This document shows, piece after piece, positions 12,504-50,126 of a stretch of 64,000 bases of DNA. Origin of the DNA: a virus; IMG/VR virus record IMGVR_UViG_3300020401_000014, positions 62,881 to 126,880 of that record; one strand, 5' to 3'. The notes under the pieces are model-generated. The model did not search any database and was not told the origin of the DNA. It worked only from the letters and a program-made list of their open reading frames with translations. How positions within the stretch are numbered: the stretch's first letter is position 1; each line of letters starts with the position of its first letter. Made by a program: the position numbers and the translations under genes.

Positions 12504-13115
12504 TTATGTTGTTTTGGAATACTGTTTCCATATCTCTAGGTCAAGATCGGTAACTGACTTACCAAGTATGCGAGCAATGTTTTTAAAGATGTTTGCAAAA
12601 TAGAAGTATGTATTCTCGTTTTGTGGCGTGCTTTTGGGTGCATCCTTGTAACCCTGATCCCTAAGGAAACTAAGTATATGAGTATCGAGCATCGGCTCGT
12701 CGAAATCCTCACGAGAGTGAGAAAGAAAAAATCTTGCGGTTTTTAGCCCAATACCACGAACCTGAAGAAGGCGTGCCAAGGATACTGTGCGCAGGTCTCC
12801 AAGCTTGAGAACATCGCAATAACTGTTGTAGCGTTGCTTGTATGGACTGATTGCTGCCCAATGCATGATCTCCATCAGGCGATTGTCGCCATCAAGACGA
12901 TTGCCATGCCAAGTGCGTCGCATATGTTTAAGCTTGTTCATGCCATCAAACGGAGCGTTGTGCCCTGTAATGTTTTGAACTCGCTCTAGAAATACTTCTA
13001 GCTTCGGAGCTTCTACTGCAGACTTCTTGCCCGCGACATTAATACAAAACAATAAAAACTCTTGTAGTTCTGATTGTGTGCGATTATAATTTGTTACTTC
13101 TGCTGGATTTATCAT
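12504..13115 (-). CDS. HhH-GPD DNA glycosylase/AP lyase (8-oxoG glycosylase-like)
   Basis: LLQVRGIGLKTARFFL helix-hairpin-helix followed by LDTHIL; C-terminal LDLEIW. Confidence 0.7.
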   Translation of the reverse strand: MINPAEVTNYNRTQSELQEFLLFCINVAGKKSAVEAPKLEVFLERVQNITGHNAPFDGMNKLKHMRRTWHGNRLDGDNRLMEIMHWAAISPYKQRYNSYCDVLKLGDLRTVSLARLLQVRGIGLKTARFFLSHSREDFDEPMLDTHILSFLRDQGYKDAPKSTPQNENTYFYFANIFKNIARILGKSVTDLDLEIWKQYSKTT

Positions 13116-13273: not shown

Positions 13274-13531
13274 CTAGTTGAATTTGTAGTCTGTGTCAAC
13301 ATAAATGTGTTGCCCGCCATATAAACAATCTGCAATATATACATCTAAATATTTTAATTGTTGCTTTGCTTTAAGTGGATATCCTCTTTTCAATAATAAT
13401 CTAATCAATTCAACTCTATGTTGTATGTCTTGTTTTTGATTATATTCTAATCTATGACTATTATCTACTACTAAATCAGCAATATCTAATAAGCCATACT
13501 CTACTGCATCGTGTTCTGCTTTATACTTCAT
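13274..13531 (-). CDS. Hypothetical protein
   Basis: 85-aa ORF in the gene-dense minus block. Confidence 0.55.
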   Translation of the reverse strand: MKYKAEHDAVEYGLLDIADLVVDNSHRLEYNQKQDIQHRVELIRLLLKRGYPLKAKQQLKYLDVYIADCLYGGQHIYVDTDYKFN

Positions 13532-13838
13532 AATATATAATAATTAGTTGGCGACATTAAATACTTCGCGAAGTTTTTCCATATCTTTCGACCACAAGAA
13601 AACAGACCTCACATAGTCCGTATCTTCTGCCTCGACCTTTTCCATGCGTTCAATCGCTTCCCATGCAGGAAGACGCTCACGCTCCATTCTACCCCATTGT
13701 ATGACTACTTTCGTGTGCGGAAAGTATTCTACGAGTTCTTTAAGTTGACAATCGGTTATATAACCCATGTTTACGAAGATTTGCATTAGTGTGTTCATGC
13801 TATCTATACTAGAGGCATAATCGATCCTTGTCAACAAT

Positions 13839-13874
13839 AAAAAAACCCTCTCCGATTTCTCAGAGAGGGTTTTT
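13839..13874. terminator. Intrinsic terminator
   Basis: AAAAACCCTCTC-loop-GAGAGGGTTTTT. Confidence 0.75.
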
Positions 13875-13967
13875 AAGACCAAAGGCTTTTATTGAGTTAC
13901 CTTTGAAGCGATGATAGTAACTAGAGGCAACACACAACCTCCGCATATTTGCTCAGAAAAAATAGAT

Positions 13968-14150
13968 GTGGGGGAGGACTACTGAATACCTCCAACTTTT
14001 CGGCGTGAACATCAGTTCAGGATTACCTACTTCGAACCACAGATTAGACTTGGCATTCGTCATCGACTCATCCGATTGGACTCTATCGCCCCGCCACAGG
14101 GAATCTGCGTACTTTAGCCCGCTCACGACAGGTTTAGTTCAGTCACCCAC
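13968..14150 (-). ncRNA. Structured rod-like ncRNA candidate (183 nt), 6S-like in size and shape
   Basis: Nested long-range pairings on the minus strand: GTGGG/CCCAC, ACTGAA/TTCAGT, ACCT/AGGT, CGTGAGC/GTTCACG, GCAGATT/AATCTGT. GC-rich island in an intergenic gap, between a perfect promoter and a terminator. Confidence 0.55.
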
Positions 14151-14246
14151 AGGAAGGATTATAAGCCCTTCCAAAGTGTTTAAAATGTTAAAGATCAATT
14201 TATTTTATTTATTTGAGTTTGGTTCTCAATTTTGATTATGTAATAA

Positions 14247-14275
14247 TTATACTATATATTTAGTTATTTGTCAAT
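14247..14275 (-). promoter_or_regulatory. Perfect consensus sigma70 promoter
   Basis: TTGACA-17 nt-TATAAT on the minus strand, with no substantial ORF downstream. Confidence 0.8.
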
Positions 14276-14689
14276 GATTTTTTTTGAATTTCTGCTTTTT
14301 CTTTTAATTCATCATATATTAAGCATTGTATTCTCCATAAACCATGATCCTTCATATTAAGACCGAGTTCTTCGTTAAGCAAGTCTCTAATCTTTTTACA
14401 TATAGCAGTTGCTTCTTCTTTGAAAGCGTAATCACAAACTTGAAGCTTAGGAGAGTCAGTCAATTCAATCATGCCCGAACTCCTTTGCCAAGTGCTTGTG
14501 CGGATAGCATTTTGCGTTTTACATCTGCTTGTTCTGCCAACATAGTATGATAATATATACTATCTTCTGCAATAGAACCATATCCCGCAAATTTATTATT
14601 GTTTATATAATGTCCACTTTTAATTTTGTTCATTATATCTGATGATCGTGCGTTTTTAGCTATACTCATAATTATATTTATATTAGTTG

Positions 14690-14974
14690 TTATCGTCTTG
14701 CAATTATATCTGCAATTCTTTGTAGTTGTACTGTATTCTTATCTATTGATGATCTTATATCATCGAGATAACCATTGGTGCATTGAGATTGATCCTCGAT
14801 CTTGTCTCCAAGGAAACCAAGATGTTGTACAAGCTCAGATGAGTTGCCACTCAAGTGAATAGCAAGGTTACTTACCTCTTGTGCGAGATTAGGTTGCTTG
14901 CGTAGCGTTTCGTGTGTGCTAACCTGTGAAGGTTGCCGATTGAGATATTCAAGTTGTTCTTCTGCGTAATTCAT
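14690..14974 (-). CDS. Hypothetical coiled-coil protein
   Basis: Start re-called to MNYAEE at 14974 (TTGACA-17-CATACT upstream). Confidence 0.6.
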   Translation of the reverse strand: MNYAEEQLEYLNRQPSQVSTHETLRKQPNLAQEVSNLAIHLSGNSSELVQHLGFLGDKIEDQSQCTNGYLDDIRSSIDKNTVQLQRIADIIARR

Positions 14975-38110: not shown

Positions 38111-38186
38111 TGGAGCCACCTGTCAGGATCGAACTGACGACATCCTCATTACAAGTGAGGTGCTCTACCATCTGAGCTAAGGTGGC
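38111..38186 (-). tRNA. tRNA-Thr(UGU)
   Basis: Full cloverleaf GCCACCT...CCTCA-CTTGTAA-TGAGG...GTCAG-TTCGATC-CTGAC...AGGTGGC-T-CCA. Confidence 0.95.
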
Positions 38187-41257: not shown

Positions 41258-41331
41258 TGGCAGTCCGGCAGGGATTTGAACCCCGACTAAATGGACCAAA
41301 ACCATCCGTGCTACCGTTACACCACCAGACT
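41258..41331 (-). tRNA. tRNA-Gln(UUG)
   Basis: AGTCTGG/CCGGACT acceptor, GATGG-TTTTGGT-CCATT anticodon arm, CGGGG-TTCAAAT-CCCTG T arm, encoded CCA. Confidence 0.93.
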
Positions 41332-49769: not shown

Positions 49770-50126
49770 TGGTGGAGGTGGCGGGATTTGAACCCGCGTC
49801 TTGTTGATTATTCGGAATTAAGTCTACAGTAATAGCTTATTTTTTTTAATGTTTTGATATAAGCATCTAACATCTTGTTACAATTATTTTCAGTTTATGA
49901 ACAAGCAAACCTTTTCTGTTTTTACAGATTGATGACCCCTGCTAACTTATCTGTGTCCACCAGCGAGAGGTGCAGCTTTATGCTGCAAGAGCGAGCTCTT
50001 CGCGAGCGAAGGGCTCAACAGAATTAATGTTTGTAGCATTTATTCTTTTATGCCTTTTAACGAAGCCAGGCATCTCTTCGTACTGCATTAAAACTTTCAA
50101 ATAACAATCGAATCCAAAACACCCCC
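49770..50126 (-). ncRNA. ssrA: tmRNA (357 nt)
   Basis: 5' GGGGGTG...GGATTCGA; 3' GACGCGGGTTCAAATCCCGCCACCTCCACCA; tag ORF 50037-49978 encodes ATNINSVEPFAREELALAA*. Confidence 0.95.

Follow-up and report, generated by a model that had tools for sequence, protein, structure and literature searches.

A manA-family RNA with a conserved branched fold and unit architecture in an uncultured marine T4-like phage

The GC-rich, ORF-free stretch analysed here is a folded and abundantly expressed RNA of an uncultured marine T4-like phage; it belongs to the manA family and is not the 6S-like decoy for RNA polymerase that a sequence-only reading of the window (the whole 64-kb stretch of viral DNA that was analysed) had proposed. 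The best explanation of these observations, to which we assign a probability of about 0.58 as a whole, is that minus-strand positions 14172-13963 are this phage's single manA-family RNA gene and a self-contained transcription unit. The product would be a stand-alone, abundant stable RNA, made early by the host polymerase with an rrn-like leader, and would act folded, as a particle that is most likely a homo-oligomer held together by a covarying contact.

Identity of the element and its relatives

The manA motif was described in marine metagenomes, two gamma-proteobacteria and T4-like cyanophages, and was considered a probable cis-regulatory riboswitch candidate (Weinberg et al. 2010, PMC2864571). 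When the whole window was scanned against RF00013 (6S) and all other Rfam families, the minus strand from 14172 to 13963 matched manA (RF01745) with 73.4 bits (gathering score 55.2, E = 8.8e-17) along the full model, positions 1-192. A score above the gathering score over the full model places the element in this catalogued family, which disposes of the fallback that the sequence-only reading had kept in reserve, an unrelated new structured RNA. Even in a permissive scan (E ≤ 1), RF00013 had zero matches anywhere in the window. Other parts of that reading were borne out: the element is a discrete structured non-coding RNA with its own consensus promoter, its own terminator and a presence in RNA libraries, the boundaries given for it (13968-14150) are exactly those of the domain closed by helix P1, and its GC content (0.46-0.51) stands above that of the flanks (0.22-0.41). 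The gap likewise proved free of any conserved ORF. Peptide coding was rejected because a 57-aa same-strand ORF is kept in only 5 of the 97 relatives and the region lengths take every value modulo 3. Coordinates of all features are collected in Table 1.

Table 1 Features of the manA locus, in window coordinates
Feature	Position	Strand	Details and basis
sigma70-type consensus promoter	14246-14274	-	-35 14274-14269, 17-nt spacer, -10 14251-14246; 12/12 match
Leader hairpin	14213-14229	-	5-bp stem, at the position of boxB in rrn leaders; conserved in related loci
boxA-like leader motif	14186-14198	-	11/13 identical to E. coli rrn boxA
manA RNA (RF01745), full length	13963-14172	-	cmscan and covariation over 97 relatives
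P0	14172-14152	-	manA helix
P1	14150-14146 with 13972-13968	-	manA helix
P3	14133-14117	-	manA helix
L3 loop strand of long-range helix	14124-14127	-	partner 14004-14007; 4 pairs, 97/97
P4	14109-14102 with 14045-14038	-	manA helix
P5	14101-14089	-	manA helix
P6	14088-14064	-	manA helix
P7	14061-14047	-	manA helix
P8 region	14037-13996	-	manA helix
L8-side strand of long-range helix	14004-14007	-	partner 14124-14127; covariation in the 97-sequence alignment
P9	13993-13973	-	manA helix
L9 loop strand of pseudoknot	13981-13986	-	partner 14138-14143; 6 bp in the window
Single-stranded 3' tail, U-run at end	13955-13967	-	conserved across the 97-sequence alignment
Intrinsic terminator	13834-13874	-	15-bp stem (13874-13841) and T-run; sequence
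Next promoter, serving the downstream 84-aa gene (ATG at 13798)	13806-13834	-	10/12; promoter scoring

The surrounding DNA also encodes rIIA, rIIB, DNA ligase, a tmRNA and two tRNAs, a gene set that fits an uncultured marine T4-like phage, and blastn of positions 13500-14700 against deposited phages gave no DNA-level match. The tmRNA (49770-50126, minus strand, 133.5 bits) has a predicted tag peptide ending in LALAA, and the tRNAs are tRNA-Thr(UGU) at 38111-38186 and tRNA-Gln(UUG) at 41258-41331, both on the minus strand; one relative (L021) carries a tmRNA too, ~9 kb from its manA. Searches of the flanking small genes against Pfam and PHROGs returned nothing. A 203-aa protein encoded at 12504-13115 (minus strand) has a weak match to an Ogg-type helix-hairpin-helix (23 bits, under the cut-off) and a strong one to a PHROG of unknown function.

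Relatives were gathered by three pattern scans, the first of which returned 45 loci (11 were dropped as chance matches in coding DNA), and two kinds of manA were recovered. One kind, the seed-like copies, comes from T4-like cyanophages and reaches 173-185 bits; here the RNA directly adjoins its promoter, and the gene that begins ~40 nt past the U-run is gp32-like or transaldolase-like. Nine relatives belonging to the window's subtype scored 72-84 bits against RF01745, and 126 complete copies of this subtype yielded the 97 distinct sequences of the alignment used below. Each of four related phage records (105-203 kb) holds exactly one manA copy. A single scan of bacterial genomes recovered no Photobacterium manA copy. 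Two seed-like copies lie on contigs of ~188 kb that are filed as bacterial, one titled Nonlabens xiamenensis (L212, 142 bits), which also has PhotoRC-II and a tRNA, and the other from a Prochlorococcus single-cell genome (L213, 186 bits); both contigs look like cyanophage DNA within bacterial assemblies.

The window's RNA shares with the published motif (RF01745; PMC2864571) the same helices, the conserved junction motifs, the probable pseudoknot partners and the setting in marine T4-like phages. It differs in being a divergent subtype, at 73 bits compared to 173-185 in the cyanophage members, with P6 and P8 extended, and in having a leader of ~65 nt with a hairpin and a boxA-like site. It also has a separate strong terminator followed by a new promoter, and is thus not placed as an mRNA leader.

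Conserved fold and long-range contacts

In the alignment of 97 relatives, the branched fold together with three tertiary helices is paired in 93.3% of cells, compared to 82.8% in column shuffles (0 of 500 reached the observed value) and 40-49% when partners were slid. With changes on both sides in 36 of the 58 pairs, the helices have been kept through compensatory change in homologs, and every shuffled or slid control fell below the real alignment. The conserved fold is multi-branched, with about ten helices and tertiary contacts, and lacks a conserved central bubble.

This fold accommodates only part of the end-to-end rod that had been drawn from the single sequence. GTGGG/CCCAC is P1, invariant and 100% paired across the 97 relatives, and GCAGATT/AATCTGT is P4, which covaries. 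ACTGAA/TTCAGT corresponds to the manA pseudoknot, which in the family joins the P2 internal loop to the last hairpin loop; its 4-bp core is paired in 88.9% of alignment cells, with wobble changes only and no change on both sides, in a set gathered with patterns that had a fixed 5' strand. CGTGAGC/GTTCACG proved to be a real long-range helix: its first four pairs form in 97 of 97 relatives and show compensatory changes. The remaining two rod helices found no support in relatives: one pair of ACCT/AGGT fails in 26 of 97, two pairs of CGGG/CCTG in its rod register fail in 50-60%, and hairpins P3 and P9, with which both compete, covary. The minimum-energy fold of the single sequence is indeed rod-like (-60.9 kcal/mol), yet not more stable than those of shuffles (z -0.22 and +0.36). 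The branched fold, at -57.8 kcal/mol before tertiary contacts are counted, is nearly iso-energetic with it, so that the "rod" amounts to two tertiary contacts read as secondary structure. Homolog comparison, in short, upheld a conserved and covarying structure, though a branched one.

Inside P8, an isolated pair (14034 with 13996, minus strand) covaries (CG 65, GC 18, UG 11, UA 1) and adjoins invariant purine-rich strands (14031-14026 with 14003-13998) that contain two fixed G-C pairs; these strands are candidates for a non-canonical element, for instance a kink-turn or a loop E. The 3' tail, considered as an antisense to early message starts, had 7 matches in the window at ≤2 mismatches where 9 were expected, and hence no excess.

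The clearest long-range signal comes from the helix between L3 and the L8 side, in which all four pairs show compensatory changes. Among the 97 sequences, the first pair is CG in 55, UA in 24, GC in 16, AU in 1 and GU in 1; the second is GC in 77 and AU in 20; the third is UA in 94, CG in 2 and UG in 1; and the fourth is GC in 82, AU in 7, UA in 5 and GU in 3. A local pair that would rival this helix fails in 9 of the 97. Complementarity between L5 and L7 is weaker, with 72% of cells paired.

These loops coincide with sites of assembly reported for other members of the family. A July 2026 preprint (Ren et al., bioRxiv 10.64898/2026.07.01.735769) describes cryo-EM of manA RNAs that assemble in vitro, with no other component, into pentamer-based particles (octamers, decamers and an icosahedral cage of 60 subunits), with subunits joined by kissing loops L5-L7' plus either L8-L9' or L3-L8'; by that account all five RNAs formed closed oligomers, two of them deposited solely as monomer models. 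The window's loops are complementary at the L3-L8' and L5-L7' kissing sites, and L3-L8 covaries strongly; whereas particles were seen in that work, the window's subtype is known from its sequence, and its helices were matched to the published numbering by their order. Mapped in this way, by helix order from P1 alone, helix 14127-14124/14007-14004 appears to fit the reported L3-L8' inter-copy contact, and we infer that L3 and L8 probably meet between copies in this subtype as well, although the covariation itself is equally compatible with an intramolecular and an intermolecular contact. Comparable ornate RNAs of phages or bacteria, of unknown function and forming RNA-only homo-oligomers, are GOLLD, ROOL and OLE (PMC12286853), which are far larger and have folds unrelated to manA.

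Transcription unit and presence in marine RNA libraries

The TTGACA-17-TATAAT promoter noticed upstream on the minus strand matches the consensus at 12 of 12 positions and is the sole perfect match in the 64-kb window, where shuffles average 0.10. A promoter scoring at least 10/12 lies within 160 nt upstream of the RNA in 62 of 99 related contexts.

Between promoter and RNA lies an rrn-like leader, in which a hairpin is followed by a boxA-like motif. The motif at 14198-14186 is boxA-like by the E. coli rrn consensus. Leaders of the boxA type are typical of untranslated stable RNAs and not of mRNA leaders. The E. coli rrn boxA consensus finds indirect support in PMC3177189. Within 160 nt upstream of manA, a boxA-like motif is present in 73 of 98 contexts, and it is largely confined to this position: its 85 occurrences in 1.35 Mb of these loci fall nearly all in manA leaders, and the window contains 1. 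The hairpin precedes the motif by 15-17 nt in 60 of 98 related loci. The arrangement, with a hairpin, a 15-17 nt gap and a boxA-like 13-mer ahead of an untranslated structured RNA, resembles the boxB-boxA antitermination leaders of rrn operons; these are bound by NusB/NusE, whereas use of Nus factors by the window's leader is suggested by its motifs. Many relatives (L046, L075, L095, L096, L098, L109) have an extra ~50-100 nt between the boxA-like site and P0, which puts the leader motif 75-150 nt upstream of P0 compared to about 25 nt otherwise.

Downstream, the strong terminator that had been noted at the end of the gap is present, and its place in the unit is conserved. A terminator-like hairpin with a T-run follows within 300 nt in 88 of 98 contexts (20% of random windows) and within 100 nt in 81 of 98 (5% of random windows), the usual distance from RNA to terminator being 47-83 nt in most contexts of the subtype, while the sequences of the stems are unrelated between loci. 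Past the terminator, a promoter of at least 10/12 lies within 90 nt in 65 of 87 contexts, as against 22 of 600 controls (3.7%), and the 84-aa gene that it serves in the window follows the RNA in 60 of 112 loci. That gene seems to be leaderless, with no Shine-Dalgarno sequence and 7 nt between the -10 element (13811-13806) and its ATG at 13798. In the window, the RNA and the terminator are separated by an 88-nt spacer (13875-13962, minus strand) shared with one relative only (L006), most relatives having 15-50 nt of pyrimidine-rich sequence; a 28-aa ORF in this spacer is not conserved.

Seventeen marine RNA runs contained part of the stretch, and four of them were examined in detail along it, of which X3 contributed nothing. 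The library of run X1 comprises just 14 million letters; its manA contigs reached a word depth of 176 for the one identical to the window and of 41 for a variant, with zero depth on the flanks. DNA of a 200-kb phage genome could not have produced this level in so small a run. Run X5 had a depth of 3-47 over the RNA and of 2-3 over the flanking genes. The identical 164-nt contig ends in X1 are assembly-graph artefacts, since each overshoots the outermost variant site by exactly 30 nt, and were rejected as RNA ends; contigs of this kind give no RNA ends, and the uncovered spacer and promoter stretches were not counted as evidence.

In the course of events that we propose, the host sigma70 RNA polymerase would initiate at the consensus promoter, with a predicted start at ~14239, and transcribe an AU-rich leader whose hairpin and boxA-like site may recruit NusB/NusE-type factors that shield the transcript, which is not translated, and assist its folding. 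The polymerase would then produce the branched manA fold of 210 nt and halt at the strong terminator, leaving the next gene to be transcribed from its own promoter. The folded RNA would accumulate as a stable RNA and act in trans, most likely as a homo-oligomer whose copies are joined by kissing contacts, chiefly through the L3-L8 helix with a weaker contribution from L5-L7.

Alternative explanations and significance

Given the length of the P1-enclosed domain (183 nt), its rod-like single-sequence fold and the strong early expression, one might suspect a 6S-like RNA, that is, a bubble-centred rod that would mimic an open promoter and sequester the sigma70 holoenzyme. 6S RNA (RF00013) is of similar length and is likewise an abundant untranslated RNA from a sigma70 promoter, but it matches the element in neither sequence nor structure: 6S is a rod with a bubble, whereas the manA element is branched and its helices P3 and P9 covary at the expense of two helices that the rod needs. 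The 6S identity was therefore rejected, and we consider such a decoy hardly credible. It would also be possible to keep the stand-alone stable RNA and drop the oligomer, so that single molecules do the work, perhaps by sponging up a host or phage protein or by giving it a scaffold, and all covarying contacts are intramolecular. The succession of promoter, leader, terminator and new promoter and the expression evidence fit this explanation as well as they fit the oligomer, and the covariation is equally compatible with contacts inside one molecule. Counted against the oligomer, moreover, are the distance of the window's subtype from the seed-like cyanophage members (73 compared to 173-185 bits) and the incomplete pairing of L5 with L7. 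A solitary monomer nevertheless seems improbable to us, in view of the closed oligomers described for all five manA RNAs in the preprint cited above (with the two deposited only as monomer models), and because no gene for a partner protein is consistently adjacent, the neighbours being without known family.

The weightiest rival, which we still judge doubtful, makes the manA domain a cis-acting attenuator or riboswitch in which a ligand, or the folding or assembly of the RNA itself, would decide whether the terminator forms and so tune read-through into the 84-aa gene and beyond, atop that gene's own promoter. An aptamer followed by a terminator is the classic riboswitch layout, and the close spacing of RNA and terminator in the window's subtype, the recurrence of the same small gene downstream and the position of the RNA just before gp32-like or transaldolase-like genes in T4-like cyanophages agree with it, as does the classification of manA by Rfam and by Weinberg et al. 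as a cis-regulatory riboswitch candidate. Two relatives, L021 and L046, lack the terminator; each has an ORF that begins ~20 nt after the U-run of the RNA, and the first stretches of the two ORFs are similar, an arrangement that we list against a stand-alone RNA. The G-rich 3' arm of the terminator also pairs with the C-rich 3' strand of the RNA at -10.7 kcal/mol, compared to -5.8 for other terminator-like hairpins of the same loci (p = 3e-18). This complementarity exceeds that of control terminators, yet it is not locus-specific and is largely compositional, since RNAs permuted among loci gave the same energy (-11.01 versus -11.06) and shuffled strands gave -9.2. The terminator lies outside the conserved fold, and its sequence, as noted, is unrelated between loci. 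A strong promoter just past it restarts transcription in 75% of contexts. In this phage, as in the majority of relatives, the terminator and a new promoter separate the RNA from the next gene, which is not the placement of a 5' leader. Placement as a 5' leader is a trait of the family annotation and not of the RNA fold. The boxA-type leader suits an untranslated stable RNA better than an mRNA leader, the downstream genes are functionally unrelated across the manA family, and no ligand for manA is reported in the literature that we found.

Beyond the stand-alone, probably oligomeric RNA that we favour, it is conceivable, and we put it forward tentatively, that the covarying loop-loop contacts join copies and are maintained by selection. 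The phage would then transcribe this RNA early, with an rrn-like leader, from its strongest promoter, and inside the cell the copies would build closed particles of RNA alone, decamers or cages, that play some part in infection.

While the manA family itself is catalogued, the present analysis measures how far the unit architecture is conserved, supplies strong covariation in favour of one assembly contact already reported, and clearly rejects 6S, so that a phage 6S in this stretch can be dropped as a false lead. The family has stood as an orphan "riboswitch candidate" since 2010, and the 2026 preprint reports RNA-only cages in vitro. Three results argue for the RNA itself, and perhaps its assembly, as the functional product: a large marine group of T4-like phages carries it once per genome as a self-contained gene; it has a leader of the stable-RNA type plus its own terminator; and one reported inter-copy contact has been kept through extensive compensatory change. 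If assembly in the cell were true, manA would become the first RNA shell in nature whose assembly interface shows evidence of selection.
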